Shown piece after piece: positions 1,434 through 64,000 of a DNA stretch of 64,000 bases. Below the pieces are notes generated by a model, which saw nothing but the letters and a program-made list of their open reading frames with translations, did no database searches and had not been told where the DNA came from. Made by a program: the position numbers and the translations under genes. The stretch is taken from contig JAAOMT010000046.1 of assembly GCA_016748015.1 (NCBI GenBank), positions 706,697 through 770,696 of the forward strand, read 5' to 3'. Source of the DNA: Geosiphon pyriformis uo1. Its lineage: Eukaryota; Fungi; Glomeromycota. Every line of letters begins with the position of its first letter. Positions within the stretch are counted from its first letter, which is position 1.

Positions 1434-2167
1434 ATGGATCTTTCAGATCAAATTTTAAATTATCTAAACAATTATTTGAAACAATTCAAAAGTTGACATC
1501 TCAAATAGAAATAACAATTGATAAAAAAGAGATATAATACAAAAATAAGAGCAGGAGAGAGGAGGACAAGAGTTCAATTAAAACTAAACGTTTTTTCCTT
1601 TACCTACCACCCAAAAGGCAATGTTGGAGAAAAAATTGCCTTCAGGCAGAAGATAGAAAAGAAGAAGACAAAGAATGAGAAAAATGTTACAAAAAAAGAT
1701 ATTTGGTCTCCGAGCTCAAAGAAATAAAACAAGCTTTAGTTCATGGAACCAAACTCTCCGAAACAGGGAAGTAGACACTTGACAATGCTCAGGAATGGAA
1801 AAAAAAACTTTCTCCAGCTTATTGGTTCTACAAAATTAGAGAACAGCTTGACTTGAAAACACCATATGAAGACCTCAACCAGAAAATGTTCAACAAAGAA
1901 GCAATACAACAAGTAAAAAAATTCATAGGAAAAAACAACCTGACCCTATATTACAAAGCAGCATACTAACTATATGCCGTTTTCTAACATTGCCCAAATA
2001 TACTACTGAATAGATCTATGAAAACCATAATGGTTAACAACATAGGATGAATAACCAATCAACAGTTCAAAGACCTACAAAAGGCAATACTTGAGGCAAC
2101 AATCAAATATTACACAAATGAAGCCACAATAACAAATACATATAGTTTTGCAGGAGCTTAATTTTAA
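1434..2167 (+). pseudogene. ORF3 of family A (unknown function, downstream of pol)
   Basis: Disrupted frame MDLSDQI...KKRYNTKIRA...KFIGKNNLTLYYKAAY...FAGA, homologous to 60993-61722 and 51503-52157. Confidence 0.7.
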
Positions 2168-2181
2168 AAAGAAAGAGATAA

Positions 2182-3263
2182 TGTTATCCAAGTAGAAAAA
2201 CCAATCCAAAGTTATAAAAAAACGTGACCAAAACATAACATAACACAGAATAGCATGCAATAACATTGGATAACACATTATAATGTAGGATAACATGTTA
2301 TAATGCAGAATAACACAGAATAGCACATAATAACATAGGATAACGTGTTATAACACAGAATAACACAGAATAACATATAATAATGTCAGATAATGTGTTA
2401 TAATATAGAATAACTAGTGATAATGTAGAAAAATGAAGCAATAACAGAAATAACAAAACAATAGCTAGTGATAGCAAGACAATTGAAAGCAATCCTGTAA
2501 AACCAAAAGAATGTATAAAAGCAAGTAGTTGTAGAAGTGAAAAAAGACAGACAGATAGATATAAATCTTTAGACAAAAATTAAATATTTATACCCTTTTA
2601 TCATTTATTATCTTCCTTATTTCATCTTCTAAAATAAACCAATTATTAAAGAAATCAGAATCACAAATTTATGTTCTTAAACTTCGTGGAATTTATGTGA
2701 ATTAACCCTTGTCTTATACCTTCATTCTAGGACAGATGCTCTTAACATAACCACTTCAAACTCTTAATAATTTGGACCAATTGCTCTTGATCACAGCAAT
2801 TGATGATACTAATTTATCTTTTCTTTCTTTTCTTTTCTTTTCTTTTCTTTTTCTTTCTTTTTCTTTCTTATTTTTTTTGTGGAGTGACAACATAGTAAAA
2901 TTGACTGTCTGGAAATAGACTTCGTGATAGCCTGGTAAAAAAAAGAAGCTCCTCCTAAGTTTTGGATATTAACATTATTTTGTTAGCTTACCAGAAGGGC
3001 AAAAAGACAACACCAGACCTTAACGATTGTGCTTGTTAGCTTGGAGAAGAAAGTTCACATTTACAGAAAATGTTGCAATTGACAAAAAACAAACTTTGTG
3101 CCTTATAACCAAAAAACTCAACAGGTAAATTTACATCCAGGAATAAACCTTCAGAGACTGATAATCAAGACTAAGCCAATAGAATTACACAGAAGATGCA
3201 TTATCAATAATTGAGAGTACCAAATATTACCAGTTCCATTACTCACCAAGTTTACTCATAATA
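2182..3263 (+). repeat. Family A LTR (3' LTR of A1), 1082 bp, with an ATAACACAGA-like tandem array at about 2236-2420
   Basis: TGTTATCCAAGTAG...TTTACTCATAATA; homologous to 12344-13313, 21424-22445 and 60107-60978. Confidence 0.9.
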
Positions 3264-6200
3264 CCACTTTTATGTTGAAAGTTTGTCAGTTGAGATCTTT
3301 ATATAGTGTTTTTAATCCTAGTTGCTTACCAATCTTATAGAACTAGTAGACTAATAAAAGTTTTTCTTTTCATATTTTGGAAGTTTTTGGTATCCAATCT
3401 TCTATTATTGGTTTTTCAATTAGTCTGCTTAAAGCTTTTTTAATTTTTTTAAGCTTTACTTAACACATATTTTTTTCTTTCTTTTTATTCTTAAATTATT
3501 TATAAGAATAGAAATATTCAGTTCTAATTGAACTTTCACCTACTTTTTTTCTGTTTTTGTTTCTGTATTGTATTTTTTTATTATTAATTGTGATTTCTAT
3601 TTGGGTTGTAGATTGTTGAATTGCCTCAAATAGTTGTTTTGAAAGTTTTAGGATTTGATTTGAGAGATTTATATTGAGAGTTTTATTATTTTTATTGCTG
3701 TTTTGGCTGTTATATATACTTAAATTTTCTAATTAAATAATTGTATGTCAATTATGTTTTAATAACAATGATTGGTTTCAGATCTTATAATATATTTTTT
3801 GGTTTAATTAATAGAATTTGTGTTTCTAATTGTGGTATAAATAATGATGTCTTTTGGTTTATATGATAAATTTTCAATCAATTTTTATACATTACTTTAT
3901 TAAAATTCTGTCTTTCAATTTTAATTTGTAAGCTCTATTGCTTAAAACTTTGTGTATGTAAAATAGACTATCTCACTTTGGGTTAAACTTTTTATTCTAT
4001 TGTTTTTTAGTTTTTGTATAATGTAATAATACTTGGTCTTCAATCTTGAATTTGATTGATTGGTTAGATAAGCAATTATTATGTCTTTTTTTTTGTTGTT
4101 CTTAAGCTTTACTAATATTGTTAACTGCTATTCTATAATTGTTTTCCAATGTTTCTATAAGCTGGTATGTTCTTTGATATAAGATAGTTTCAAAATTTTT
4201 CTTAGTGATTGTTTTTGTTGGAAAAGAAGGTATTTTTTGTTCAATAGGTAAGATAATTTTCTTTTTATAGACTAGTTTGAATGGTATAAACTGGGTAGTA
4301 TTTTGCTTTAATATTTAATATGCAAATAATATAGAAGATATAAATAAATTCTATTCTTGTGTATTTTCATAACTTATTTTTGCTAATGCTTTATACAGTG
4401 TTCAATTAAATTGTTCTACCAGTCTATTTGTTTATAAGTAATAAAGTAACAATAAGAGTTATTTTATTCCAAATTGTTGGCTTAGTTTAATTAGTATACT
4501 ATTAATGAAATATGTTTTTTAATCAGATAATAATTCTTTTGAATATCCATGATGGCAAATTAGATCTTGGTATATAAACTCAGTTATTGTTTTAATGTTA
4601 GCCACTTGGATTGCTCTGGCTTTTGGTCATTTGATAAGGTAGTTTACAACTACAGCAATATAATAATTTTTTTTTAATATAATTGAAAGAGAACCAACCA
4701 AATTAATTCTTATTTTATTAAATAAATTTTCAACTGAAATGAGTTGAAGTGATTTTATTGTTTTGGCTCTTTTTTTTTATTGGCATAAATTACAGTTGAG
4801 GACATATTTAAAGATATCTTTATATATTATTAGCCAATAATATAAATTTATAGTTCTTTTTAGAGTAGCATTTTTGTTAAAATGTCTTATGGTTGGGTTA
4901 AAGTACATACTATGCAAAACAGTTTTTTTTTTATTGTTTTTTATAACTTATTGTAAGATGGTACAGTTTTGGCATTTTTGATAATATAATTGATTGTTTT
5001 AAATAAAGTAATTACAAGCTTGTTTTTATATACTATTTTGTTTCTGTTAAGATAATAGCTTCTTAAATTAAAGTATTGATAAATACTGGTGTAATTATTG
5101 TTAAGTGGTTGTATCTATGGGTTCAAGATTAGATTTGCATTATTTTCAACAAACTGTTGGCATTGGTGTTCTTAGATCTTTTTTTATAATAAACTTTGTA
5201 TAGAAATTATTGTAGATAAGTACTCTATTATGTATATCTTTTTTTCAGTTGTGGTTTACTAAGTAATCAAATAAGTCTTTTATGATTGGTATATAGATTA
5301 AATGGTTGGCAAAGATAATGTTTCCAATTTTGTATCACCTAGTAGATAATAAAACATTCTAAATCTGTTGCATTATATATTTTTTTTTCTGTGTTAATGC
5401 TGCAACTAGTATAGACAATTAGATATTCTTTATTATTTGGTCTGATTTGTAACAAAATGGCTTCTAATGCATTTTTTAAGACATCTGTAATAATGATAAA
5501 ACATTTATTGAAGTCTGAACAATATTGGTGCTTCTATTAGGTGCTGTTTGAGATAATTGAATATCTTTTGCTGTTTTTTTTTCTATAAGTATGGAATATG
5601 TTTTAATAATAAGTAGTAAAAAAGTTTTGTAATATTAGAAAAGTTTTTAACAAACTGGTAATAATATTTTGCCAGTTTTAAAAATTTTTGTAATTCTTGT
5701 AGATTAATCAGAACTGGGAAATTTTTAACTTTCTGAACTTTATCTAAGTTAGATTGTATTTTATTTTTGCTTATTACATGTTCTAGAAATTTAAGTTTGG
5801 TCTTTTCAAAGAGACATTTATCAGATTGAATTTTAGTTTAGTGCTCTGAAGGCAGTTAAAAACTTGTTGGAGATAAAACAAATAATTATTAAATGTTTTA
5901 GAAAATACATTGGTATTATTCAAATATACTATAATTAATTTTTAAAGAATTTTTATATATATAACATCCATAAGATACTGAAAAATAGTAAAAGTATTAT
6001 AGAATTCAAAAAACATTAAATTGAATTTAAAATTTTTGTCTTATGTGATAAATGTCATTTTTTTTTTGTCTTTAGAATTTATTTTAACTTGTCAATATTT
6101 ACTGATTAGGTTTAATAACAAGAATCATTTCTTCTTTCTTAAATTATCCAGAATTTTTTAAATTAGAAGAGTAAGATAACTATTTCCTTGAGTAATACTG

Positions 6201-13586: not shown

Positions 13587-14243
13587 TTAATAAAAAGTAT
13601 AAGTTTCAACTATAATATCATCCTCTCTAAAGAGATTAAGCTTTGGTAAAATTAAGCTATTCATGGTGTAATCTATTTGAAGAGTTTTATCTAACTCAAA
13701 GCTAACTAATTTGTTGAAGTCTTTTGTGGATAAGATATATTATACTTGAGGTAAAATAAGTTCTGTATCCAAGAGACCAAATCTTTGTATTAGGGTTTTG
13801 GCTCTTCTAACAATAGTTAAAACTCTTGGGACATCTAACTATATAATGCCCAAAATTTCTGCCTGTATTTCTAAAATTGTTTTTTTTATAAGTTTCATAT
13901 TCTCTATGATTTTTTTAAGATGACCATAAAGTTCTAATTGCCTTTTATATAACAAATTTTTGTCTATGGGCAAGATTTCTTGGATTGTTTTTCCAATTGT
14001 GCTAAAAGATGAGAGTATAGCTGTTGTTATACTTTCTAACAGATATTTATCCATTTTGCTACCAATTTTTTTTCTTTTAATAGTAGTTTTCTTTGGTCTA
14101 ATAACAGTATGTATTCCACTGTTATTAATTATGATGGTTTGTTTTCCAATAGTTAAAGTAGCATTTGAATAGTTTTTGATTTAATATTCATAAAGAGTAT
14201 AGAAGACATTTTGAATGTTTTGATCCAGAAAATAATTGTTCAT
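13587..14243 (-). pseudogene. ORF3 of B1
   Basis: MDKYLLESITTAIL... (track ORF 13839-14054) colinear with B2 ORF3. Confidence 0.75.
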
Positions 14244-27790: not shown

Positions 27791-28571
27791 AGTATTTGGA
27801 TCTCACTTATTAAACTTATAAAAATAATAATAATAATAATTAAAATAACAAATTTTTTTTATTTTTTAAATTATTTTAATATTATATTTTTAATATTATA
27901 ATTAAAGTTTTATTTAAATTATTTATAATTCTGTTATTATTAAATTTTTTGAACATTTTTGCTTTAAATAGTATAAATAATAAACAAAAAAAAACAATTA
28001 AATTTTTAATTACTTATTTTTGTAAAATTGTAAGTTTGTTTTTTAATGGCCAAACATTTTAAAAAGATCAACTTTGTAGGGTATCTTTATAACACCCTAC
28101 AATAAATAGAGGGTTCTCAAATAAAGCTAACTGAGCATTTCTCAATGCTTTAAGAACAAGAATATAAATTCAAAATTATCTACTTTGAGCTGTTTAGGCA
28201 CGCCCAACCAACGTATTTTGTCTCTTTGGTTCACCCTAGGAGACAAGTCAATCAAAAGATCAACAGTGAAAGTAGTTGTAGCTACAAGGAACACCTCCTC
28301 CTCATCGCAACCCTTTAAAATTCAGTAAATCTGCTTTGGTACCGTCCCTGTCCAACTTGCTTTCTTTCTCCTTTTTTGCTTCCTTTCAAAACAATAGTCT
28401 TTCTCAAATGACACATAAACGAGAAAGTTGCACTTTGGACAAAATGTCCCCTTTTGCAATGTATGTCGTATATATAGTCCAAAATGTAACGCTCACACCC
28501 CCAACACTCTTCCTTTTGCAGTTTGCCTTTGTATCACAACCCATTACCCTCCTCTTACTCCTCATAACGAA

Positions 28572-33750: not shown

Positions 33751-36700
33751 TTATTATTAATAAGTACAGTCTAATTACTATCTAGTATACAAAATTAAAA
33801 CTAGAGATTTCAATTAGACATAATTCACATTTTTTCTACATATGACCAGTTATTTAAACCAATTAAGACAATACTAAACTCCTATATGAATTGTTGTAAT
33901 ACTATTTAGACCAAAAAAAAACAAACATAACTTATAAAAATCAAAGCTAATTCCAAAAAATTCATCAATACCAAGTAAATAAACCATTCCATCTAATAAA
34001 TTTAACACCAAACAATAAGCCAAAACCAGTATTACCACAAAATTACCAACCAAACCACTTTTTTCTATATCTACCCAGTATTTGGAACTGAATTTCCACA
34101 ACTTAGACTGATATTATTTACCCAAATCATACACAAAATTAACCAAAATCTGGGCAGCTCTTTTATGATTATCAAATACTTATACAGTTTTATTATACCA
34201 ACTTATGAACACAAAATTTTTACAAAAAAGAGCATATAGATCAATATTAGATATATATAAGAAAAAAGATTTCATGATTATTAAAGACAATAGAACACAA
34301 GATTTAATTAAAGATCTCCAAATTATAATTTGCTTGATCAAAATCTTTTTATAAGAATCAAACTTTTTGAAACATATAAACACATGATCAGAGAATTCAA
34401 TCTTCTTATACTATAAATACAAAACATTTAAATATTTTTTGTCATAAAGTTTTTTCTTAATAATAATAGATAGTCTCTTATGTACTGTTTTCATAAAGTA
34501 TATATACAAACCTGCCAAAGCCTTACTTATTAAGCCTGCTAACATATGTAAATCTGAATGCCAAGCTACAGCAGTCCAGATTTAATCAACTTCACAATTT
34601 GGTAAAATATTCAATACTTTAGAACCAGAACTATTTTTCTAACAGATATAATTCATTGACTTATATATATCTCTGACAAAATAATGAACATTATTAGACA
34701 TTGGCAACTCACTAATCTTAACAAAGCATTTATGGACATTGCTGGACAATAACAAGAAGAAATAAACAGCTTTACTTACTAAAGCATCTATACAAATATT
34801 ATTCAAAACATCTAAATGTCTCTTAATCTTTGACCAAAAAACTAATAGATTCTTGCTGCTAATCAAATTTACAATGTGTCTTTTTTACATTCAGCAACAG
34901 TTACAAAAATCAAAATCTAATATACCCAATTCTGAGACACATACATCTATGACTGTCTGGCTGTTTAAATATACAACCACAGTACAAAAAATAGTACATA
35001 TTCCAAAGCAAAAGCTATAGCCTACAACTTAATTATTGTCAATAATAGCAAACCATTAAATTTAACACCAAGACCCAAATCAACTTCCAAAAAATATGTA
35101 GTAGTTTTACCAATCACAGCAAAAGAATCCAGTCTTTTCAAGAAGTTATTTGTATAGACATTAAATTTATTTAACCAGACTTCAAAAAAATGATCTCTTA
35201 AGATCAAACTAAACTAAAAATAAAACACTATTATCTACCAAAATAAAACTCAAACCAAAAAAAGCAGACCTAGCATCATATAAAAACTTTGAAGCCAAAA
35301 AACACTAGTTTTCTAAGATTTAATTTTTTTTAGCAATAAAAAATTCTTTAATTTATAATTACACTCTGCTTATTTAGAAGTCTGTTACAAAAAGCCATAC
35401 CATATTGTTTTAAGAAACTAACTTTTTCATAATACAAAAAAGCCACCAAGATACTTAATATAAAAAATCTGTTAAAATTATAAAATGTATAATACAAAGT
35501 ATTTGCCAAAAAAAACCATTATCCAAAAAAATACAAACTATATTAACCAGAAAATTATTAGGAGAATTAACATACAATCTCACAAAGTGCTGTAAAAGGT
35601 TCAAAAGTGTCCAGTTTAGAATTTGCAAATTCAAAAATCTGTACTTAAAAAGCTGACTGAAAATTCCAGAAATATTAGCAAATATAACAACAAAGACAAC
35701 TTTCTTTTGGCCTGAATTTGTTTAAAAGTTTTTAGATTATACAATAAAAAATGATACAATGTTTTATTTGGAAAATCTTGAAGCAAACCACCCTTCAACT
35801 TAAGATTCTTTCTAATTAAAACATTTTATTAATAACAAACCACTAAAGAAATAAAACTGAACTGTAAATAATAGCTAACAATAAATTGCAAAATAGTTGA
35901 GACCAGATACAAGAACTGTTTATTTGTAATAGCTTTTCTCAAAACCATATTAGAAAAAAACTTAACATCAAATTAAGTCTTGGCCAAATTGGGCTTAAAC
36001 ATTTTAACAGTAAACAAAAAAATTTCCAAATATCTGTACAGCACTTCACTTTCAAAAATCGAAATAAGTAATCTACTAATGTTTAAAAAGGCATCCTTAA
36101 TCCTTTGATTGATAAGAATAGCCACTGTTTTATCATTATTAATTGAGATGTTATTGATTAAAAAAAATTTGCTAACAATATTCAATATATGCTAAGTGAC
36201 AGCTTGGCTATTCACAATTCAAATAATAATATTAACAAAAGCACCAACTGCAAAAAATGAAGTCATTTTTCTTATGTCTTCTACTTTTTCAGTTTTAATC
36301 ATGGATTAGGTATCAATCCAGTATTTACACAAATATTCATGTTTTTTAATTTTGAATTATAGAAAATTTTCCAAAAAAAAAAGAAGAACACCTCACTCTG
36401 ATCAAGTTTATTATGCATCTAATAATCATCTATAAGACCAAAGTTTGTCATAATTTTATTTAATTTATTTTCATGAATGTTACCAAAAAAATTAATGAAC
36501 CTCTTACATATTTTAATGTACTGTTACAGGTTGAAGTAACAAGCTAATAGATAGCAAGAGAGAACAGGATTGTAGAGTGATGAGAATAATCAAAGAGAAT
36601 TCAATTTCAAAGAGTGAATTGAATAAATATAGATTCAATATGTCAGATCAGTTTCATAAAATATTTCAGTTGCTATTTTTTTTAAAGATAACCGGAGAAT

Positions 36701-37193
36701 CTGAAGGTAGAGGGATAGTCTGTACTGTCAACAAATAATTACACTTGGTATAATTCTATGTCTCACATTGGTGCTTTTAGAATTTAATATCAAGTATTAG
36801 ATGTGTTTTTCAGTCATATTTTATTTAATAATCTCCAAATATTGTAATTACACGTTTTAGGAAAAGGGTAAGGAATAATCAACAAGTAATTTTTTATCTT
36901 TAAAATGTTCAGATACTTGAAAGTAGAGAAAATAAAATTAGCAATAAGAGAAGGATTGAGATGAAAATTGTTATTTTATTTATTTGATCTCCTTAAGTTC
37001 TTTATACTTTTCTACAATTAAGAGATTCATTGCTTATATAGTTATCAAAAGTGGTCAATAATCAGATCAACAACTAGGTCAATGATTAGGTCAATGATTA
37101 GATCAACGGTCAGGTTATTGATCAGATCAATAATCACTTACTAAAAATAGAATGGCTAATTTATATGACATCAGTGACTAATATATGTGATAA

Positions 37194-37850
37194 TTAATAA
37201 GAAGTATAAGTTTCAACCATAATATTATCCTCTCCAAAGAGATTGAGCTCTGATAAAATTAAGCAATTTATGGTGTAATCTATTGGAAGGGTTTTATCTA
37301 ACTCAAGGCTAACTAGTTTGTTAAAGTCTTTTGTGGATAAGGTATATAATACTTGAGGCAAAATAAGTTTTGTATCCAGAAGACCAAATCTTTGTATTAA
37401 AGTTTTGGCTCTTTTAGCAATAGTTAAAACTCTTGAGACATCTAACTGTATAATGCCCAAAATTTTTGTTTGTATCTCTGAAGTTGTTTTTTTCATGAGT
37501 TTTATATCCTCTATGATTTCACCAAAGCGACCATAGAGTTCTAATTGCCTTTTATATGACAAGATTTTGTCTATGAATAAGATTTTTTGAAGTGTTTTTC
37601 CAATTGTATTGAAAGATGGAAGTATAGCTGCTGTTATACTTTTCAACAGATATTTATCCATTTTACTACCAATTTTTTCTCTTCTGGTAGTGGTTTTCTT
37701 TGGTCTAATAACAGTATGTGTTCTACTGTTATCAGTTATGGTGGTTTGTTTTCCAATGGTCAGAGTAGCATTTGAATAGTTTTTGATCTAATACTTATAA
37801 AGAGTATAGAAGGCGTTTTGAATGTTTTGATCCAGAAAATAATTGTTCAT
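37194..37850 (-). pseudogene. ORF3 of B2 (219 codons, one internal TAG), overlapping the PPT and 3' LTR
   Basis: ATG at 37850 (MNNYFLDQNIQNAF) is in frame with track ORF 37194-37661; the same frame is present in B1. Confidence 0.8.
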
Positions 37851-37899
37851 GTCGATTAAAAATACCTCTGTTTTGGGAATGGTGCATTTATTTATACTT

Positions 37900-40800
37900 G
37901 ATTTTTGCTGATCATTTGAGTCAGTATTACCACAACAGACAGCCAATCAGGTCGTTTATGATATTTCTTGAGTCGTGTACCATGAACAGAATGATCATTG
38001 AAGATTGTTTTGAATTGATTTTGAAGAATATAAGAACCATTGTTCAAAACTTTGTTGACTATAAAGGGTCCTTTCTACCAGCTAGAGAATTTATCACCAT
38101 AAACATTGTTTTTATCTGAATGGTATTTCAATACCAAGTCACCAACACTTAAAAAAAGTGTTTTATAGGTTTTTTTTTCTTAAGCTTTTCTTGGAACTGT
38201 TTTATCTTTTCAAAAGCAATTATTCGTGCTTCTATCAAGGAGTCAAGAATAGTACCAAGTCTTTTTTGCAAAATGTCTTTGTAATTTCCTATTGTGATCT
38301 CTTCAAAGGGTATTGTTTCAATATCAGTTTCTATTGGTAGTGTTGCCATGCATCCATAGAGCAGATAAAAAAGTTTATAACTTGTTATGTCATGATTCAC
38401 AGTTCTATAAGCAAACAAAGCTGAAAGCAGTACTTTGTCCCATAAGTTTGTTTCTTTACTGGTTTTGGCTAAGGTTTCATATAATGTTCTATTAAAACAT
38501 TTTACTAAGCCATTTGTTTAGAGGTAATAAGGGGAGGAAAGTTTATGATGTATTTTCATTTTTTTACAAAGTTCTTCAACCAGTGTACTGAGAAAAGCTC
38601 TTCCTCTATCAGATAAAAGTTTTTTGGGACAGCCATGATGGCAGATGATATTTTCATAAATGAGATTGGCTATTAAGACTGCTGTTTGGTCTGGGGTGGC
38701 TCTTATTTCTACTCACTTTGTAAGATAATCAGTAACTGTAATAATATATCTGTTGCCATCAGGAGTAATTGTTAAAGATCCAACAACATCTATACCAATT
38801 CTGTCAAATGGTTAACCAACAGAGATTGGATGAATATCTTTTTTGTGATTGGGTTTGCTTTTTTTTTGACAAATGTCACAGGTTTTGATGTATTTAGCAA
38901 TGTCTTTTTCCAAGGTAGGCCAATAATAGCGAGTTAAAGTTTTCTGAATTGTCTTTGTTTTTTCAAAGTGTCCAGCTAATGGGTCAATGTGCATGTTGTA
39001 TATTACAATTTCTCTTTCTTCAAATCTGATGACTCTTTGGGGGCAGTCAGAATCTTTTCTGTTTCTTTTGTATAATTGGTTCTGGTGGATCAAATAAAAA
39101 TTTGATTGTTTGCACAAATGTTCTCTTTGCTGTCGAGTGTATTCAGGTGGGTATTGTTTTTTACCCAAAAATTTCATTAAGACAAAGTAGTTGTCCAAGT
39201 CCATTATCGTGTTTGTTTATAAAAGAGTTACTAATAATTAAGTTGGTTTGGTTTAAGAAGTTGTACTGTCACTAGATAATAAGTCTAGATAGAGCATCAG
39301 CATTTTGATGATTTGCTCTTTTGTGGTGTTAAATATCATAGTCGAATTTATCCAAGTGGAGTATCCAGCAAGTTATTTGTTTGTGTTCCAGCTTCTTTTT
39401 TTTGCACAGTCAAACCAAGGCTTGATGATCTGTTACCACTAAGAATTTTGCACCAAAAAGATATTAATTCCAGTAGTTGATAGTCCAAACTACTCCTAGA
39501 CATTTTTGTTTAGTAACTAAATAGTTCTTTTTTGCTGGTGTGAGGGATCTACTGACATATGCTATGGTATGTTCTCTGCTATTTTCATCTTTCTGTGAAA
39601 AGACAGTACCAAGTCCATAGCCAGATGTATCAGTGTGAAGGATAAAAAATTGGTCCAGATTAGGTTGTTTGAAAATTAGTAACAAGTTTTTCCTTCAAAA
39701 ATTCAAAAGCTTTTTGTTAATAAGTGCCCCAGTGATAATTGACATTTTTTTTGAGTAGCTGATTGAGAGGAAAGACAATTTTGGAGAAATTCTTGATAAA
39801 TTTGCAATAGTAAGAGGCCAAACCAAGGAAAGAGCATAGTTCAGGAACATTTATTGGTTGTCTAATGTTTTGAACTTTTTCAACTTTAGCTGGATCAGGA
39901 AAGATTCCATCTTTTGTAACAAGATAACCAAGAAATTGGGTAAATTGGCATCCAAAAAAAGATTTGATTGGGTTGATCTTAAGGCCAGCATTTCTGAGCA
40001 GGTCAAAAATCTTCTGTAAATGTTCAAAGTGTTCATCCCAGGTTTTTAAATATACCATTATGTCATCCAAGTAAACCAGAACAAAGTTTTTTTTTACTAA
40101 TTTAAACACTTTATCTATTAGACATTGAAAGGTAGGAGGAGCATTGGTGAGACCAAAAAGCATAACTGTGAATTCATAGGTGCCATACTTGGTAATAAAA
40201 ACAGTTTTTTTTTTGCTTTCTGGATCCAGCAATTAAATCAATGGTTAAGAAGAAAGCAGCACTATTGAATTTATCTAGCATTGTATCAATTTTGGGAAGT
40301 AGGTACATGTCTCTTATAATAATGACATTTAATTGGCAGTAGTCAACACAGAAGTATAGAGTTCCACCTTTTTTGGATACCACTACAACTGAGAAAGCCC
40401 ATTCACTCTTGGTTTCTTGTATGAATTCAAGATTTTTCATCCAGTTTATCTCTTTCTTAATAAACACATCATTATATTGATTGGATTAATATGGTTTCAA
40501 ATGGATGGGGCGAGTTTTTTGGGTGGTGATAGTGTGTTGTATCACATAAGTTTGTCCAGAAGTGTCACCTTCTTTTGAGATAACTGGACTATTTCTAGCC
40601 AACAGATTTTCAATGTCCACTTTTCTTTCTTCAGGAAAAGGTTTTCTTTGTTCTACAATTAGTGATTGGATTTCAGGTGGTTCATTCTCAAAAGACTTTT
40701 GTACTTCTTTAAGTTTTTTTCAAGATATCAAGCTAATTGGTTTCCAATCTTTGTAATAAATCAGGCAGGATTTGTATTCATTATTTGGTGAATACAAAGG

Positions 40801-41934
40801 TTTATTATACTAATACTGTACATAAAAACCATGTCACCAATAACTGTATTTTGCTTTCTTGTCAGGTTTTTTGTCAAAGGTTTTTCTGAAGATATCATAG
40901 TAGAGCCAGCAGATCAGCTTGCCATTTACCATAATTCTTTCTTTGTCAGCTTTAACATTATTTAGTGGCTTGCCATTGCTGATGAAAATGGTATAGGCGA
41001 GTTTAGCAGTTTCTTCTTGTTTTTCTTGATCTTTATCATCGCTCTCATCATCATCTGATTCATTTGATTGTTCTTTTTTTTGGTTTTGCTTGGGTACTGG
41101 AGGGGTTGTTTAATAATAGCACTTAACCACAATGGGCTTTTTACCACATCTGATGGTTAGTTTGCAAAGTTCATAGTCAAGTAATGCTTTGGTTTTCTTA
41201 AGCCATTCATTACCAACAATGATGGTGTACTCTTTTGCTTCAAATACTTCCATATCAGTTTCAATGCTGATACTATTGATGTGAACAGAAATAGCTTTAG
41301 TTATGCCCAGATCTTTTTTTTTGTCACCATGTACATTGGTCATTGGTTTTATGAAAGACTCATCAATCTTTCTGCCAATTGCTTTAAAAAAATGTTTAGC
41401 AATTATACTAACAGATGATCTACTGTCTAGAATTAAATCAATGAAGTAACCAGCCACTTGGGCTTTACAAATCAGAGGGGTAACATTGCTGTTATCAGCA
41501 AGTCCAGCTTGGCGAGAGTGTTTGTTGGTTTTTGGTGTTTTTTTCTTTAGTATCAATGATTTGCGAAGATCTTTTCTGAACTGTGGATAGGTCATTAGTT
41601 GGCCAAATGTAATATGTGCTGGGGTTTCTATAAAATTTTTAACAACAGAATAGGGTCCAGATTTTTGTACAATTTCTGGAGATTCCAACTTTGGAAAATT
41701 TTTAAAAATCTTAGCCTTTGGTGGCTTATTGTTATTAACAGATGGTTTGGATGCTTTGTTTGGGTCCAAAACAAAATCAATCTTGGCTTTCTTCTTCTTT
41801 CTGGTTGATTCAGAGGTGTTAATTGCTAGTTCATCCATATTATGATTATTATCAGTTAGGTTAAAAGCATAAAAGGAGTTTTTTTCTGGTTGGCTTGCAC
41901 TCTCACTCTTTGGAGGTGCACCTACTAGTTTAAA
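37900..41934 (-). pseudogene. B2 pol (PR-RT-RNase H-IN)
   Basis: Track ORFs 41110-41838, 40174-40467, 39717-40232, 39464-39685, 38812-39204 and 38149-38418 in Gypsy domain order. Confidence 0.93.
41896..41934 (-). promoter_or_regulatory. -1 frameshift signal: TTTAAAC, 7-nt spacer, stem-loop
   Basis: TTTAAAC tagtagg TGCAC-CTC-caaa-GAG-tgaga-GTGCA; the -1 frame stays open for 32 codons into ORF 41110-41838. Confidence 0.8.
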
Positions 41935-43480
41935 GGCTGGTAAACAGTAGCTTCAACTAAAGGATCTTTTCCAAAGAAATTGATGTTGGCATGATTGGGC
42001 CTTTGATTGAGAACATTATTATTGTTGGGTCTGTTATTCTGGGTGTTATTATTTTTGGGAGCTGGAGAAGGCAATAAAGAATTATTACAGTCTCTAGAAA
42101 AGTGTTCAGTTAGTTCACAGCAATAGCACACAGGTGAGCCATGATTTTGTTGTCTTTGATATGATAATTGCTGGGGCTGATTGAAGTGGAGTTCAAATCT
42201 GGGTCTTTGGGGTTGTTGGTTGTCTCTGACTGCTTGGGCTAATGGTTCTAATAGCCAAGCAAGATTAGCTGTAAGTCTATCTATTAACTGTTCATTTGGG
42301 TCTTGAGTTTGGACAGCAAAAGAGATAGCAGCCATTTAGGGAGCAGAAGCCATAACAGAAGCAGAAGCAAAAACTGGAAGTGTGGATTCTAGATGCATTC
42401 TTTGATTGTCTTCTATTCTCTGAGCAAGTTCAATGGCCATATCCATCATGGGATTATTTTTCAAGGCCAGGAGGGGCCAAAGAGCATATGATAAATCAGT
42501 TCTCAGTTCTTTTGTAAAGGAATGTATTTTCTGCTTTTCTGTTCAATTTCTTCCAGAGTCTACCTGTTTAATGAGTTTTCTTATTGCTTTGGCATATTTT
42601 GTTACAACCTCACCAGAGCCTTGAGTTCTTCTTTCTAATTTCATATACTATTTTGAGATTAAGATAAAAGTTCTAAATTTTGTTTCAAACTGGGTAGTGA
42701 AAGAGGTGTTGTCTTCTCCACCATTTGCTGGTGCCCATTTAATGATTCTTTGTTAAGCATTGGCATTGGTTTCTTGTGAGAACCAAGTAGCAGGAGAGTC
42801 TTGGAGATAGTCACCAACAATTTGGAACTTGTATTCATTATCATATTGGTTTGCTGTGGCAGCTCTCTCAAAATCATCCAGCCATTTGATTGGATCTTGA
42901 GCATTATCTCTGAATAATGATAATGGGGTGTTGTTTCTTCACCCTAAAGCAGTCTGTATATCTTGAAGAGCAATCAAAATGTTTTGTTGTAGAGGGTTTT
43001 GAGCCATTGGTTCAGGTGTAACTGTTTGTGTGGAGTGTTCTGATTCACTTGAAAAGAGATCAAAAACAGAAGCAGTTTGATAGCTTTCTTCTTCTGTTTT
43101 AAGAGGAGTTTTTGTTGATTGATGGACAGCAATTCAAATGTGGATTTGATAATTCAGATATTCGAAATCAGGGAGCTGTTGTTCAAATATTGCAGAATAT
43201 AAGAGCTGATTGATACTGTTATTTCTTTCTTCAAAGTTGTCTTCAAAATAAGCTTGGTCAAAGTAATAGGTTGTATAAGCTGTATAGGTTTTAGCTGAAT
43301 GCTCATTCAGGAACCAGTTCCAAAAGTCTTAGAATTGTTTGCTGGATTGTTTTTCAATAGAAAAGCAAATCAAGCAGAAGGACAAAGGATTGAGTTTAAT
43401 AAAGTCTAGATCATTTTTGTTGTGTGCTTTAAAGTATTCTTCTGATTGTTGTGGCAGGTATGAATAATTACCCATACAAT
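41925..43480 (-). pseudogene. B2 gag
   Basis: DAQDPIKWLDDFERAATANQYD capsid-like region; Q/N-rich tail with a CX2CX4HX4C knuckle. Confidence 0.85.
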
Positions 43481-43503
43481 AGGAAACAAAGTAGATTTTA
43501 ACA

Positions 43504-43521
43504 ACCTCATAGGGAGCACCA
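43504..43521 (-). promoter_or_regulatory. Primer binding site of B2
   Basis: TGGTGCTCCCTATGAGGT next to the 5' LTR. Confidence 0.85.
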
Positions 43522-44898
43522 CTTTTATGTTACAGGTTGGAGTAATAAGCTAACGGATAGCAAAAAAGAACAGGATTGTAGAGTGATGGGAATAATCAAA
43601 GAGAATTCAACTTCAAAGAGCGAATTAAATAAGTATGAATTCAATGTGTGAGATCAGTCTTATAAAATATCTCAGTTGCTATTCTTTTCAAAGATAACCA
43701 GGGAATCTGAAGGTAAAAAAATAGTCTATACTGTCAACAAATGATCACACTTGGTATAATTCTATGCCTCATGTTAGCACTCTTAAAATTCAATATCAAG
43801 TATCAGATGTGCTCTTTAGTTACATTTTATTCAATAATCTCCAAATGTTGTAATTACACGTTTCAGGAAAAGGGTAAGGAATAACCAACAAGTAATTTTT
43901 TATCTTTAAGATGTTCAAATACTTGAAAGTAAGGAAAGAGAAATTAATGATAAGAGAAGGATTGAGATGAAAGTTGTTATTTTATTTATTTAATTTCCTT
44001 GATTTCTTTATACTTTTCTATAGTTAAAAGATTCATCGCTTATATAGCTATCAAAAGTGATCAATGATCAGATCAACAACTAGGTCAATGATCAGATCAA
44101 TAATCAGATCAATGGTTAGGTTATTGATCAGGTCAATAATCACTTATTAAAAATAGAGTGGCTAATTTATATGACATCAGTGGCTAATACATGTGATAAT
44201 TAATAAGAAGTATAAGTTTCAACCATAATAGTACCACAAACTAGCTTTTAAATAATGTTATCTAACTGAGTTATATGTTTTGTACATGTCTTACAAAACC
44301 AACCAAACTTCTTTTTTCTTTCCCAAAGCATTTTCAATTACTAAGTTAACAGAAAAAATAGAAAACTATGTCAAAGTATTCTTTAAAACTAAAAAGTTAT
44401 CCTTATAAAGAATGTTAAATTTACTGCAAGCAAAAAAAATCCGATTTGAAAGAATTTTGGAGAGAATTTTTCAAGCTGTTTTAATAAGAGCAATAGGATA
44501 AGTATTTGTCAAAATTCTATCCTATTTATAAGGTTTAAGTATTATTAAAACTCATATTTTCTTCTATAAAACCAAAATTATACTCAAAGCCAAACATAAA
44601 TTCAAAAGAACTAAGAAATTTCTGAAAACATTATCATTACAATGCTTTTATAATTCATTAAAGATACTACTTAGACTAGCAGTTTTCTTATTAAGCAAAT
44701 TTTTAACCACTTGAACCAATTTTTAAGACTAATAATGTTTATTACATCTAAAAATACACTATCTTTTACATGGTTCAAAGAAACATACTAATTAGTTCAA
44801 AGCCCAAGAAAAAACCCAAAAACTATCTGTTTTTTGATTCAATCTTCTATGATAGTATTAATTTTAATCTTAACATCTTCAGGTTCAAGAACCAGCAG

Positions 44899-51502: not shown

Positions 51503-52157
51503 TTAATATTGAGCTCCATTAAGATCTCCTAATTCTAATTCTCTGTCTTTGAGTATTTCTTGAACTTCTTTTTCAAGAATTACTTAAGTTATCTTGTTTT
51601 GTAGTTTTTTAAATTAGACATTGGTTATTTTTCTTATTTGATTAATGATAATCAAGTCTATTGCTGAGTTGAGTAAGATTTTTGAACAATCTTGAAATTT
51701 GATTTGTAATCAATATATGGCTCATGCTTGTGTAGTTAGATTGTTCTTTTCCACAAATTGTTCAAGTTGTTATAATATTGTTGTATCAAATAGTCATTTT
51801 GTTTTGTTTGTATATAAGTTTTGAATATTCAGATGTTGTTCCAAGTGAAAATAACAAAAGTTTCTTGGAAATTGTTGTGTTCACCACTTCCAAGTTTCTT
51901 TAGTCACTTTTTGATATGGAGTAACACTTGTTGGCTCTTCTATTGTCAATTTTACTTTTAGAATTATTCTGTTAACAGTGCTTTCTGGTTTCTTTTGTAC
52001 TTTGTATGGGCATATTTTTCTAATATCTTGGTATTAAATAGTTTGTTGGTTGATAGTAATTTTCATATTCTGTTGTTAAATCAGTTGGAAGAGTTGTTGT
52101 GCCAGTATGTGTATGTTGTTAGTAATTTCTATATTCTTTTTGTTGTCTTTGTTGCAT
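51503..52157 (-). pseudogene. ORF3 of E2
   Basis: IHILAQQLFQLI...QLEQFVEKNNL...FQDCSKILL...INQIRKITNV*FKKLQ...DLNGAQY*, homologous to family A ORF3. Confidence 0.75.
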
Positions 52158-57583: not shown

Positions 57584-60106
57584 TGTTACTCATAAAAAAA
57601 ACAGATATAGAAAATAGTAGACCAATAAGGGAATAGTAGTTAGCACATGAGTATATTGCTCAGCAATATGGAGCAATATCAGAAATTATGACATATTGCT
57701 CAATAATATGGAGCAATATTAGAAATTAGAGCATATTGCTTAGCAATGTGAACATTGCTCAAGAAATCATAACACATTGCTTAAGAATATAAGCAATCTT
57801 ATAGAACATAAATTAGGTATATATAACAGTAGCATTAGAAGCAGAAAAGACAGATCTCTCAATTTAGATTTGATCTAAGCAACTTTTCACATCACAAATA
57901 TCAATAAATAATTATTCAATATCTCAAATCTACTCCTCAATATCAACACTTTATGTTAATAGTAATTGATACTTAAACCATACTGGAACAATAGCTCTTA
58001 ATCATGGCTATTGACAAGATACTAACATTTATTGTCTTGGCTTATTTCTTTATTTTCTTTTATTTTCTTTTATTTTGTTATTTTTTGTTGTATACTAATT
58101 GATTAAAGGATTAAAGCACTGAGTTACTGACGTCAGGATATAGCATTGGTAAAAGACCCAGGAATAAAAGTAGACACTCAGATTTGAGGATAGCTTACCA
58201 GGAGATTGCTGGCCACCATGTTGAGAAAAGAATTGATAGAATTGTGATTTCAGGAAGTGACAGATAACAACTATTTTAACTCATGAATTGACACTAGAAA
58301 CACTATTTAAAAAAAATTATATTGGAATCTCTGTTCATTATACAAAGAACTCAACCAAAATCTTCAGATACAGTTAACCTTCAGAAACCAACATCATTAG
58401 ATCAATTGAGCACCAAGTTACAGATTTGTTATTTGCTTTAAGACTCCAAATAATCACTTGTAATATTTAGTGCTTCCTGTAAAATATAATCTTACAGAAA
58501 ACCAGTACCAACAACAATCATCTAAAAGTGGCAGAATCAGAAATAATAAGGAAAAACCATTTAGGATTCACTAAATCTTTATTTCAACAGTACAGTCAAC
58601 AATTGGGCTTAATTAACAACTATTATCCAGTGGAATTAGCCTTCAACTTCTATGTTAACAAAAGAATCACAGATTTTCTGAGAAGACCAGTTAATATTAA
58701 GTTAGCAAGAAAAAATTTCTATACAAAATTAATCTAACACATTAGCTTACCACAAAATTACAGTTTTGCACCAATTATCAAAAAAATTAATCAAGAAATT
58801 GAAAGATATACTCAACAACAATTTCCTATTATCTATACAGATAAAAGTAAAAGAAAGTTACAAACACCAACAGCAATTCCAAAAGAAATACAATTACCAA
58901 TGTGGAAGAAACAAAGAATTAAATCTCCACTATATCCATTATACCATCATACATCTGGAAATACCATCAATATTATATCAGCAGGTGCATTCACATCAAA
59001 CATGACATCAATATTTGGATGACTTCTATTTCAAAGTAAACAAAAGAAAACAGAGTTATTAGAAACATACAGTAATTACTTTGAAGGATTTAAATTACAA
59101 TCCTCAACACTATCAGGATTCCAATTACCACCACCTCCACCAGATTTCGGAACTGCAAGTGCTTGGGAAATAATGACATCAGAAAAAAAGGAAGAAGAGA
59201 ATCAAGAATTTAATTATAAAAATTCAATTGCAGAAAATCCAGAAGTTGAAACTCTGAATATTCAAACCCAGCAAACTCAAAACAATCCAAACTTTGAGTT
59301 AATTAATCAGTAAAACTTATTTTCAGAAATTGTCATTAATCAACAACCAATTGATCCAATTGCTAAACAACTTCAATTACCACCAATACTACCTCAGCAA
59401 TTACCATTTCAACCACCACAACAACCAAACTTGGATCCAATGGCCTATGCTCCAATAGCAAAACTTAAAAAATTTATGGGCAAAGAAGATAACACCCAAA
59501 TATGGCTGAATGATGTGGAAAAAGCCATTGCAGCCAATAGATAGAATGATGTATGAGCTATGCAAGCCATTCCATACTTTTTCTAAAATACTACTGATTC
59601 ATAGTATCAGAGCTTGGTTAACAAACTTCAGAATTTCAACACATTTAAGCTTAAGTTCTTGAAATATTTTAGCAACAACAACAGTATTAATCACTTAGCC
59701 AATACCTTCACTACTATCAAGCAAGGAGAAACTAAAGCAGTCACTACTTACTTAGAATGCTTTCATAGAAACTTAAGCCAAATACAAGCAATTGATGTGA
59801 ATTATTTACAACACCACAGATTCTGAACCAGTTTATCTGTAAACTGCACAGTAGCATCCTCTAATGCATACACCCAATGCACCCACAAACTCTCTAAGAC
59901 ACAGTTACCAATGCACGGAATTTCGAATCTGCAGAACTCGAAGCTAACCATGCTTAAGCTGTTAATCTAGTAATAAACAGATTATCTGAATTGAATTCCA
60001 AATTGAAACAACTTAGTGATTCAATTAATCAGAAATTAGAAGGATACTTAGCTGACAATCACACAATTTATTAGCCACTCCAATAACACAATAATTCTGG
60101 AAACAT
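57584..60106 (+). mobile_element. Gypsy copy E3, 5' part (5' LTR 57584-58465, PBS 58468-58485, gag), cut by A3
   Basis: TGTTACTC...CTTGTAATA; PBS TAGTGCTTCCTGTAAAAT; gag MAYAPIAKLKKFMGKEDNTQIWLNDVEKAIAAN. Confidence 0.9.
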
Positions 60107-63100
60107 TGTTATAAGTAAACTGGGTAGGGTATGATGGTAACATTTAGTGCTCTAGTTTTGGGTTATCTTTCAAAGTTGTCTGCTTTTTCCTCTGTGTTAA
60201 TGTTATCAGTCTTTGAAAGTTTATTCTTGGGTGTAAATTTATCCATTGAGTTTTTTGGTTATAAGACACAGAGTTTGTCTTTTATTGATTGCAATATTTT
60301 CCATAATGTGAACTTTCTTCTCCACACTAATGAGCACAGTTGTTAGGGTCTGGCATTGTCTTTTCACTTTTTTAATAAGCTACCAAGATAATGTTAATAT
60401 CCAAAACTTAGGAGGAGCTTCCCTCTTTTACTAGGCTATTACAAAGTCTATTCTAAGACAGTCAATTTTCTTATGTTGCCATTCCAAAAAAAAAAAGAAA
60501 AAAAAAAAAGAATTAGTTCTTGTCAATCGCCATAATCAAGAGCAATTGGTCCAAATTATTAAGGGTTCGAGACATTTATGCCAATGGCATCTGTTCCAGA
60601 ACAAAAGTAGGAAATACTGATTTTAATTTTAATTAAAATCTATAAGATAGGAGAACATAAATTGGTGAATTGGATTTGGTTTTGATAATTTATTTTATTT
60701 TGGACTATAGATATATAATAAGTATAATACAAAGTAAAATTGATTCCTAACTAACTGTCTGCCTTTTCAACTTCTACAACTACTTGTTTTTATACATTTT
60801 TTTGGTTTTACAGGATTGCTTTCAATTGCTTTACTATTACTAGTTATTGCTCGTTATTACTAGCTATTGTTTGTATTTGCTAGCTATTGTTTGCGTTTGC
60901 TTTGTGTTACCTCGAGTTGTACCACGTTTTTTTTGTTATGTTTTTCCATAGCTTTTTGGTTTTTTTACTCGAGTAACATTATTTCTTCCTTTTTAAAATT
61001 AAGCTCCTGCAAAATCATCTATTTCAGCCAAGTTTGTGTTTTCCATAAAGAACTCAAATGTTGTCTTCAGTATTACTTTTTGTAGAACTTCAAATTGAGT
61101 ATTTGTCATCTGTTTTATGTTGTTAACTGTAATAGTTTTCAAAGTTTTATCTAGTAGTACTATTGGACAGTGTTTAAATGCTGAATATAGTCAGTATGTT
61201 GCTTTGTAGTATAGATTTAAGTTGTTTTTTCCCACAAATTTTTCTACTTGTCTGCAGGCTTCTTTGTTGATTGTTTGATGGTTAAAGTTTTTATATGGGC
61301 TATTTAATCATAATTGTAACCCAATTTTAAATAACCAATAGATGAGTGGAAGTTTCTTTTTCCATTTCTTTGCATTTTCAGATGTCCATTTTCTTGTTAC
61401 TGGCTCCAGTGTTTGCCTGTTCAGACTCTCTCTTATTTTCTCAATTTTCACCTGACACAGTTCTATTTCTGTCACCTTTTCCTTCTTTTTAGCTGTATCA
61501 GGTCCTATCTCCACCATATTTTTTTTTTCTTTTGTAAGGAAAGGTTTGCTTATAAGGATGGGACAGCTTAGTTCTAGTTGAACTCTTATCCATCCCTTTC
61601 TTGCTCTTATCTCTGTATCGTATCTCTTTTTTATCAATTGTGATTTCTATTTGAGTGGAAAATTGTTGAATTGTATCAAACAGTTGTTTCGAAAGTTGTA
61701 GAATTTAATCTGAAAAATCCATGTTGAAAAAAGTTCTATCATTTTCTTGTTGTTTTCTGGGTGGTATATATACTTAAATTTCCCAATTTAATTTGCTATG
61801 TGTTGTCTATGTTTTGATAACAATAATTGGTTTCAGATCTCATGGTATATCTTCTGGTCTGATTAATGAAATTTGTGTTCCTAGTTGATGTATTGATGAC
61901 AATGACTGTAGTTTCACATGATAAATTTTTAATTAATTCTCATGAGCTACTTTCTTTAAAATCATGTCTTCCAATCATAATTTGTAAGCTCTATTTTCTA
62001 ATGCTTTGTGTATGTGGAATAAACCATTTTACTTTGGGTCAAACTTTCTGCTCTATTGTTTTTCTGCTTTTGTATAATGTAACAATACTTGGTCTCCAAT
62101 CTTAAATTCCATTGGTTGTTCGAGTAGGCAATCATCATGTCTTTCTTTTTGTCATTCTTGAGTGTTACTAATATTGTCAACCACTATTTTATGATTGTTT
62201 TCTAATGTTTCCATTAGCTGGTATGTTTTTTGGCATAAGATATCTTCAAATTTTTTTTTGTTAATAGTTTCTGTTGGGTAAGACACTATTTTTCATTCAA
62301 TAAGTAACATTGCTTTTCTTCCATAGACTAATTCAAATGGTGTAAACTGTATCATATTTTGCTTTAATATTCAATATGCAAAGAGTACAGAAAATATAAA
62401 TAAGTTCTATTCTTGTTTGTTTTTATAACTTATTTTTGCTAATGCTTCACATAATGTTCTATTAAACTGTTCCACCAGTTCATTTGTTTGTGGGTAATAT
62501 GGTGACAATAACTGTCATTTTATACCAAAAAGTTGACTCAATTTAGTTAATGTAATATTGACAAAATGTGTTTTTTGGTCTGATAACAGTTCTTTTAGAC
62601 ATCCATGTTTGCATATTAGATCTTGGTGTACAAATTTGGCTACTGTTTTGGTGTCAGCTACTTGGATTGCTCTGGCTTCTGGCCATTTTGTAAGGTAGTC
62701 TATGACTACAGCGATGTAATGATTTCCTTTGGATGTAATCGACCAACCAAATCAATCTCAATTCTATCAAATAGATTTCCAACTGGAATGGGTTGAAGTG
62801 GTTTCATTATCTTGGCTCCTCTTCTTTGCTGACATGAGTCACAATTGTAAACATATTCAAAGATATCCTTATACATTGTAGACCAATAGTATAGATTTGT
62901 TGTTTTTTTCAAAGTCGCATCTTTGTTGAAGTGTCCTGCAGTTGAGTCAGAATGCATACTATATAATATAGCTTTTTTTTTACTGTTCTTAATCAATTAT
63001 TGTGGGGTGGTGTGGTTTCATTGTTCTTGATAATAGAGTTGGTCATTTTGAATAAAGTAATTTTGTGCTTGTTTCCATATGGTATTTTGTTCTTGTTGAG

Positions 63101-64000
63101 ATAAAATCTCCTTGAAACATAGTGTCAATAAGTACTGATGTAATTGCTGATAAGTAAGTGTGTCCATGGGTCTGAGATTAGGTTTGTAACATCCTTGACT
63201 AACTGTTGGCATTGGTGTTTTTGGATCCTTCTTTGTAATGAACTTTGATTGGGAATTGTTGCAGATAAGTACTCCATTTAGCATATTTTCCTTCTAGTTG
63301 TGAGTTATTGAGTAACCAAATGAGTCCTTTATGATCGGTATATAAGTTAAATAGTTGCCAGAGGTAGTGTTTCCATGTTTGTATGGCCCAATAAATGGCA
63401 AAGCATTCCAAATCCATTGTGCTATATATTTTTTCTACTGGGCTGGTACTGCAACTAGTGTAGACAATTGGATGTTCTCTTCTGTTCAGTTCTATTTGTG
63501 ATAATACAGCTTCTAGTGCATTTTTTGATGCATTTGTAGTGACAATGAATTGTTTGGTGAAGTTGAGATAGATCAGTATTGGAGATGTAATTAATCACTG
63601 TTTAAGATAATTGAAGGCTTTTTGTTGCTCTTCTTTTCACAAGTATGGCACATATTTGAACAACAAATGATGAAGGAGTTTTGTAATAGTTGAGAATTCT
63701 TTGATAAATTGGCAGTAGTATCCAGCCAATCCTAAAAATCTTTGTAGCTCTCATAAGTTGATTGGAACTGGAAAATCCTTGACCTTTTGAATTTTGTCTG
63801 GGTTGAGTTTTACTTTATTTTTGCCAATCACATGTCTTAAAAATTTCAGTTTGGTTTTCCCAAAGAAACATTTATCAGGGTTGAGTTTTAATCTGGCATC
63901 TCAAAAGCATTTAAAAACTTGTTGCAGGTGGAGCAAATGTTCATCAAATGTTTCCGAAAAGACATTGGTGTCATTCAAGTATACTATGACTGATTTCCAC
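60107..64000 (-). mobile_element. Gypsy copy A3, 3' part (3' LTR 60107-60978, ORF3, IN, RNase H, RT), running off the window
   Basis: LTR TGTTACTCGAGT...CTTATAACA; PPT AAAAAGGAAGAAATAA; integrase 61830-63170; RNase H 63199-63600; RT VYLNDT at about 63975. Confidence 0.92.
60993..61722 (-). pseudogene. ORF3 of A3
   Basis: MDFSD*ILQLSKQLFDTIQQ...KKRYDTEIRA...QVEKFVGKNNLNLYYKATY*LYSAFKHCP...ITVNNIKQMTNTQFEVLQ...DFAGA. Confidence 0.78.

Follow-up and report, generated by a model that had tools for sequence, protein, structure and literature searches.

We analysed a 64,000-nucleotide stretch of the Geosiphon pyriformis genome (contig JAAOMT010000046.1, positions 706,697 to 770,696; hereafter the window), in which self-comparison revealed nested, decayed long terminal repeat (LTR) retrotransposons stacked together. 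Six copies of Ty3/Gypsy elements from three families (A1, A2 and A3; B1 and B2; E2) each carry a separate sense open reading frame (ORF) of 215-245 codons, here called the accessory ORF, between the integrase stop codon and the polypurine tract (PPT) and 3′ LTR; all six are decayed. The frame has evolved under purifying selection in the A lineage, its A and E versions align with open relatives in Geosiphon and in metagenomes, and a TATA consensus precedes its start at nearly constant spacing. We tentatively propose that the gene encodes a regulator that would act in trans on the element's own promoters.

A separate reading frame behind the integrase

The copies were located by profiles built from open relatives, and naturally open copies recovered in protein searches (P0262, P0254, P0126 and P0008) were used in place of rebuilt family consensuses. 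The profiles found the ORF at the six places and on the strands listed in an initial annotation of the window, whose quoted peptides are present in the translations, and they detected nothing else notable in the window. Four copies (A1, E2, B1 and B2) keep a single frame across most of their length. In-frame stops number 6 in A1 against 9-18 in the other frames, 2 against 5-18 in the core of A3, 3 against 14-24 in B1 and 1 against 13-18 in B2; the 9 against 10-19 of E2 would be unconvincing alone. Internal stops nearly always stand opposite Q, R or W of the open relatives, as decay by C>T and G>A changes predicts. The frame is intact in natural copies: P0126 is an open A-type protein of 244 amino acids, and 20 of the 120 listed B-type matches are open 218-amino-acid proteins that run from Met to stop.

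The accessory ORF is not an integrase extension, because it starts 43-84 nucleotides (nt) past the integrase stop codon (80 nt in A1, 84 nt in A3 and 43 nt in B2). In L001, a metagenome contig described below, a stop again separates the two, and the 316 nt between integrase and ORF contain stops in all three frames. RNase H also ends in a stop in L001 (745-830), where a new ATG follows and integrase has its own frame, and in B2 (about 39,265-39,304, reverse strand). Integrase is therefore probably an ORF of its own, and the accessory gene, initially described as a third ORF, is probably the fourth. Another sequence, L002, has a 137-codon ORF without a Pfam match (398-811) immediately upstream of the accessory ORF, and a TATA consensus stands at 314; in some elements there may be two accessory genes.

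Since decay after insertion consists almost wholly of transitions, only transversions were counted in the selection test, which covered the A pair (A1 versus A3) and the B pair (B1 versus B2). The A pair differs by transversions at 24/79 synonymous and 86/589 non-synonymous sites, giving a corrected non-synonymous to synonymous ratio (N/S) of 0.37 (Fisher p 0.0007). Shifted-frame controls gave 1.18 and 0.92, and the integrase gave 0.14. By part, the ratio was 0.28 for the core (p 0.0016) and 0.12 for the first 48 codons (p 0.012); a cruder count by codon position was borderline (p 0.06 for the whole ORF, 0.047 for the core). The B pair showed no measurable selection on the ORF (N/S 0.79, p 0.59, from 6 transversions only), whereas its integrase does show selection (p 0.007, 4 transversions). 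A missing signal is to be expected among dead copies, because they decay after insertion. We conclude that purifying selection holds for the A lineage, where it is weaker than on the integrase; the ratio lies away from the neutral value of about 1 in that pair, although the B pair carries no such signal. Measured by synonymous transversions, A1 and A3 diverge by 0.30 in the ORF (1454-2158 versus 61002-61702) and 0.14 in the integrase (1-1350 versus 61810-63152). This twofold difference suggests that the 3′ module may have been exchanged between subfamilies by recombination.

The proposal that the host heavily mutates its repeats was borne out by their heavy C>T decay. B1 and B2 differ chiefly by transitions (1,015, against 106 transversions, in 7,232 compared columns), and between them 32-41% of non-CG cytosines differ, in every next-base context. 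The observed/expected value for CG over the whole window is 0.16, and the longest stop-free stretch in the window is 280 codons. Classic repeat-induced point mutation (RIP) leaves a CpA-specific pattern. The decay of these repeats is heavy and context-free, unlike CpA-directed RIP. LTR elements are given as 41% of the G. pyriformis genome in the available part of PMC11952901.

One resemblance near the end of the frame belongs to the DNA. All three families (2153, 13644, 37251, 51517 and 61007) and L001 (about 3090-3120) have, immediately in front of the PPT, a GGAGCTCAA-like motif whose core is palindromic. In A and E it is read as GAQ; in B, the C subfamily and L001 it is read as ELN or ELS, in a frame that continues through the PPT into the LTR. 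The pair DFAGA*F/DLNGAQY had been taken as likeness between the A and E proteins. This did not hold: it is a DNA motif read in two frames, and we do not count the C-terminal GAQF/GAQY match as evidence at the protein level. The motif likely serves in cis, for plus-strand priming or for RNA structure.

A protein family of narrow known range

A search with the B-type protein returned 382 candidates, of which 129 matched at E up to 0.001, and all 120 that were listed come from G. pyriformis. Similarly, the A/E alignment gave 82 matches among 3,477 candidates, all from G. pyriformis. Searching 1.84 billion representatives with a profile yielded 114 matches, nearly all of Geosiphon-like types by BLAST; the 10 looked up comprised 8 Geosiphon and 2 metagenome proteins (P0254 and P0262), while the names of the other 104 were not looked up in that step, some having already been named through the A/E alignment search. 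With P0254 and P0262 as queries, 11 matches were obtained among 2,004 candidates (3 metagenomic, 8 Geosiphon). The metagenome members of the family are P0254, P0262, P0303 and P0304, and of 592 stretches scanned in metagenome contigs, 2 were confirmed. From the first to the last helix, types A, A3, E, C, F and G and the two metagenome types can be aligned, at 14-50% identity. On the strength of these alignments, A and E form one family with three or four more Geosiphon subfamilies and the metagenome proteins. The protein-level alignment of A with E proposed initially is thereby upheld, and beyond the Geosiphon genome too, though not for the GAQ end.

The metagenome contig L001 encodes reverse transcriptase, RNase H and integrase, followed after the spacer by an open ORF of 230 amino acids that runs through the PPT into the TG start of the LTR. 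The element's anatomy recurs here in a second genome. Identity to A1 is 52% in the integrase, and identity to the Geosiphon types is 23-31% in the accessory ORF; such fast evolution of the ORF would fit a protein in contact with the host or with a cis site that changes.

Neither Rhizophagus nor any other named fungus was among the returned family matches, and the known range is narrow. The first ESM Atlas match for P0262 was a 98-member Mucoromycota cluster at 0.94, with a recognition value of 2186, below the tool's 2300, and so a weak lead only; B gave no useful lead there. Viral contigs held no relative of the ORF (0/404 pattern stretches) or of the L001 integrase (0/9), the best phage match by tblastn reached only E 8, and no part of the 44-row family alignment was sufficiently conserved to support a locus scan. 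More than 200 annotated "hypothetical proteins" of G. pyriformis are pieces of the accessory ORF, often with predicted introns linking them to gag, integrase or adjacent elements (in P0130, two ORF types are linked). Pieces of a transposon gene annotated as host proteins inflate the G. pyriformis gene set.

The B version had been described as loosely similar to A and E. Direct comparison of A/E with B profiles was not significant (hhalign P 0.79, 0.026 and 0.62), and under the family hidden Markov model B proteins did not outscore the best shuffles. Intermediates did provide a link. When PPT-encoded tails were removed, P0262 and the C-type protein P0305 scored a median z of 3.6 and 4.1 against 20 B proteins, exceeding 3 with 11 and 14 of them, respectively; of the other queries, P0254, P0126 and P0138 stayed near 0 and P0229 reached 1.3. 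BLASTP between P0262 and P0008 gave E 0.002. The B alignment is collinear and its predicted elements follow the same order as in A/E; the B model itself is poor (pLDDT, the predicted local distance difference test, 39.9). B is thus probably a distant member of the family, linked only through the C subfamily and L001, and the likeness claimed for it holds as probable homology through intermediates but not as a direct A/E-B match.

Env features were sought in 14 proteins. The highest 19-residue hydropathy was 0.44-1.44 in all 14 (the usual limit for a membrane helix is 1.6), the best 11-residue hydropathy in the first 35 residues was -0.05 to 1.46, a signal-peptide check by hydropathy only, with no dedicated predictor, and none of the 14 has a furin-type R-x-K/R-R site. 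Each contains at most 3 cysteines. The structural model, too, lacks a membrane-helix pattern. The absence of a signal peptide and transmembrane helix noted initially was therefore reproduced in 14/14 proteins, and these are not recognisable as a known Env. The accompanying proposal of a soluble helical protein kept by selection stands in that the protein is non-Env, mainly helical and selected in the A lineage, although the membership of B is probable only.

An AlphaFold2 model of P0262 built from the 44-row alignment has a mean pLDDT of 79.5, and of about 90 over residues 80-200. It comprises a helix and beta-hairpin (7-38), a disordered linker (40-51), a helical core and a long C-terminal helix. 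Foldseek found no match at E 0.001 in the PDB or among viral models. VIA-align reached a best Z of 4.7 among 48,161 chains and 4.3 among 991, with none at Z 5, which is below the trust level; these structure searches barely probed the N-terminal part, and the B model was too poor to be searched. Weak VIA-align rows spanning the core (78-207) were Spo0J/ParB (Z 4.0, root mean square deviation (rmsd) 5.0, 93 residues aligned), the KorB DNA-binding domain (Z 3.4, rmsd 4.4, 92 residues) and the Raf1 N-domain (Z 3.3, rmsd 5.6, 96 residues). Rows of the ParB/KorB/DUF1016_N fold type (Z 3.3-4.0 over 59-96 residues) were tied with unrelated helical bundles. In Pfam nothing rose above noise; DUF1016_N matched 1 of 44 members at E 0.037 (14.6 bits, against a cut-off of 32.8), among 48 families at E up to 1. 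The best PHROGs match had E 0.0012 (one protein, unnamed family) and the best PDB sequence match E 0.39.

The idea of a ParB-type helix-turn-helix arose from these structural rows, the DUF1016_N match and a conserved G-K-x-N at the turn. Kinship with ParB or DUF1016_N was not supported: hhalign scores were not above block-shuffled nulls, of which 7/40 and 3/40 scored as high. This test used 28 of 30 ParB and 22 of 30 DUF1016_N loci, after exclusion of rows that matched partially or had long insertions, and a repeat in global mode was uninformative because its own control failed. DUF3102 was found in 0/24 genomes, and the ParB N-terminal domain had no match in the accessory protein. The ParB helix-turn-helix and DUF1016_N profiles, from bacterial loci L050-L109, match each other (hhalign probability 80%, E 1.4e-5, 42 columns). 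A confident model without a clear fold match makes the protein a reasonable structure target.

The isoelectric point is 5.2-5.9 in three metagenome proteins and 8.8-9.7 in most Geosiphon copies, and the basic values of the latter are probably inflated by G>A decay that turns E into K.

A putative internal promoter and a possible role of the gene

TATAWAW begins 46 nt (A1), 50 nt (A3), 46/44 nt (A2), 45 nt (E2), 46 nt (B1) and 46 nt (B2) before the aligned start codon; the chance of this consensus in a given 3-nt slot is 0.0064. The fixed spacing is likely the best hint of a short RNA that would start at an internal promoter and end in the 3′ LTR. In the explanation that we prefer, the accessory gene would be driven by a promoter of its own where integrase ends, and a short subgenomic RNA would begin behind the TATA consensus and end in the 3′ LTR. 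Its product would be a soluble helical protein whose core may bind nucleic acid as a DNA-binding regulator, and which may raise the activity of the element's own promoters in trans or keep them unsilenced. The layout would resemble that of foamy virus Tas (last gene, internal promoter, LTR activator) without kinship. We hold this explanation at somewhat less than an even chance. If it is true, a shared element-encoded factor would help to explain how the families spread under C>T silencing, and the open natural copies and the predicted RNA start are concrete objects for testing it.

Several observations weigh against the proposal. The six copies amount to three independent families, and the TATA pattern was noticed before it was counted. 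The only TATAWAW in L001 sits 126 nt upstream rather than about 45, and L002 lacks the spacing, its 137-codon ORF directly preceding the gene. The TATA match of B shares bases with the integrase stop codon, and TATATA serves in yeast as a 3′-end signal as well. Among the sequencing runs listed, none was an RNA run that holds the gene, which speaks neither for nor against its expression. The structural leads fall far below the trust level, the Foldseek and profile tests were negative, and the acidic metagenome members do not favour a simple basic nucleic-acid binder. A bolder extension of the proposal is that a fungal Gypsy clade has turned "complex", with a split integrase and an internally promoted trans-regulator, a counterpart of Tas, that would have an undescribed fold or a helix-turn-helix core of remote bacterial ParB/KorB ancestry, would activate the element or shield it from the host's methylation, and would occur from A to B and be exchanged as a 3′ module. 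We consider it doubtful as a whole.

The same arrangement would suit an RNA-level helper that exports genomic RNA or allows ribosomes to restart on a polycistronic RNA, as may be needed for an integrase behind a stop. The RNase H stop in B2, and that in L001 with its new ATG, agree with such a role, a last gene with its own promoter fits it equally well, and the CERV protein of Cer1 offers a precedent (PMC10309623, as far as that source is available). However, no RNA-binding family or fold was found with Pfam, Foldseek or VIA-align, and many systems restart after a stop without an element-encoded helper; we regard this explanation as rather unlikely. The last gene of cauliflower mosaic virus lets ribosomes restart on polycistronic RNA. 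A protein-binding brake or counter-defence factor, which would limit copy number, exclude related elements or inhibit a host RNAi or methylation protein, is in keeping with rapid divergence under purifying selection, with the acidity of unmutated members and with the heavy methylation signature of the host repeats (the low CG value given above); in the related fungus Rhizophagus, small RNAs and CG methylation are described as targeting Gypsy elements in the accessible text of PMC8647823. It is unlikely all the same, as the protein bears no likeness to known suppressors in Pfam, PHROGs, the PDB or viral models.

A cofactor of integration or of the particle would accompany integrase or Gag and steer insertion in the stead of a chromodomain. 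Pfam found no chromodomain behind the integrase of A1, B2 or L001 (E up to 0.01), whereas the part of PMC3248453 available describes one in most fungal Gypsy elements, and the helical core could read chromatin. The integrase C-termini of A1 and L001 match SH3_Tf2-1 only, and that of B2, which is decayed, matches nothing and is uninformative alone. An ORF that is older or more exchanged than integrase, by synonymous transversions, is nevertheless awkward for a tight partner, and we think the cofactor role quite unlikely. The region might instead be non-coding 3′ sequence or integrase read-through with an incidental open frame, as the lack of selection between B1 and B2 and the terminal DNA motif could suggest; but the reduced N/S occurs in the true frame only, protein homology is full-length at 20-37% identity across subfamilies and genomes, the L001 copy is open with its own ATG far past the integrase stop, and the family alignment yields a confident model, making this explanation very improbable. 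Lastly, the ORF occupies the env slot, and a degenerate Env or Env-like membrane protein might be expected there. With 210-245 amino acids, no hydrophobic N-terminus, membrane stretch or furin site in any of the 14 proteins and no match to viral models, that identity is barely credible.

The carrier elements and known systems

The carriers are Ty3/Gypsy LTR retrotransposons by their domain order between LTRs, their PPT and the TG start of the LTR. In B2 the Pfam order is RVP_2, RVT_1, RT_RNaseH, Integrase_H2C2 and rve, and L001 has reverse transcriptase, RNase H and integrase in that order. The integrases of the three families differ, those of A1 and B2 being 43% identical. At 60103-60978, the 3′ LTR of A3 lies inside the gag of another family (forward strand, about 58,500-60,100), with ACAT as its left flank; its other flank falls beyond the window. 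A GC-richer island (28282-29967, about 40%) has several open frames of 138-233 codons on the forward strand and is probably a host gene among the repeats.

Table 1. Coordinates of the accessory ORFs and associated features in the window.
Feature	Position	Strand	Profile match	Basis
A1 integrase stop	1351-1353	+		
A1 TATA consensus	1388-1394	+		
A1 accessory ORF (decayed)	1434..2167	+	1454-2164	profiles
A1 LTR, beginning	2182	+		
A2 accessory ORF, 5′ two thirds only, start codon decayed	3253..3672	-	3253-3669 (two frames, shortened)	profiles
B1 accessory ORF, 218 codons, 3 internal stops	13587..14243	-	13590-14243	profiles
B1 TATA consensus	14283-14289	-		
Whole B2 element: LTR, gag, protease-reverse transcriptase-RNase H, integrase, accessory ORF, LTR	36522..44230	-		self-comparison, Pfam
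B2 accessory ORF, 218 codons, 1 internal stop; runs through PPT (37225-37235) and 31 nt into 3′ LTR (begins 37224)	37194..37850	-	37197-37850	
B2 TATA consensus, overlapping integrase stop	37890-37896	-		
E2 accessory ORF (decayed, 9 internal stops); aligned start 52132; LTR begins 51489	51503..52157	-	51506-52147	
E2 TATA consensus	52171-52177	-		
A3 3′ LTR (begins TGTTA; far end read from sequence)	60107..60978	-		sequence, self-comparison
A3 GGAGCTCAA-like motif, ORF stop and PPT	60979..61007	-		
A3 accessory ORF (decayed; frameshift near 61,528, internal stops)	60993..61722	-	60996-61722	profiles; selection versus A1
A3 TATA consensus, putative internal promoter, 50 nt before ATG	61766..61772	-		
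A3 integrase stop	61807-61809	-		
A3 pol region (reverse transcriptase/RNase H/integrase, SH3-like end; runs off window)	61807..64000	-		self-BLAST to A1/A2, A1 integrase Pfam

An Env of the errantivirus kind is about twice as long as the accessory protein. The two share the genomic slot only, the accessory protein having no signal-like segment, membrane helix or furin site. The comparison with ParB/Spo0J/KorB and DUF1016_N consists of weak whole-core rows and one sub-threshold Pfam match, without significant support from sequence or structure. Some fungal Gypsy elements have been drawn with an "add. ORF" of unassigned function in the available portion of PMC2864245; those are chromodomain-bearing, Tcn1-like elements, whereas no chromodomain was found in the present ones, a distinction drawn by description only. 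We found no description of the accessory ORF family in the literature, a search that did not extend to Repbase, the Geosiphon genome paper or supplements, which may annotate it, and the parts of PMC11952901, PMC8647823 and PMC3248453 that were available do not mention an ORF of this sort for glomeromycotan elements.

In foamy viruses, Tas/Bel1 is the product of an internal promoter that binds and activates both the LTR and the internal promoter, as described in the accessible parts of PMC4929722, PMC8670036 and PMC13220597. We compare the two for how they may work: Pfam scans show no sequence similarity, and both promoter and activity are inferred for the accessory ORF. Like CERV of the Caenorhabditis elegans element Cer1, as portrayed in the available text of PMC10309623, the accessory protein is an orphan, non-Env Gypsy accessory protein for which a regulatory role is proposed; by the same description CERV is made from spliced RNA and exports genomic RNA, whereas the TATA spacing suggests an unspliced short RNA for the accessory ORF.

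Extra ORFs in the same slot are also found outside the fungi. Plant LTR elements have sense additional ORFs (aORFs) between pol and the 3′ LTR, those named in the available part of PMC7264820 being Env-like, and the ORF3 types of bdelloid rotifers are Env-like or encode a GDSL esterase or DEDDy exonuclease (PMC5408684, likewise). The accessory ORF agrees with these in slot, in orientation, in its presence in all family copies and in going beyond the gag-pol scheme. In contrast, its protein matches none of their types, nor any Pfam family. The accessory gene family appears to be undescribed, although the slot is already known to hold extra ORFs.

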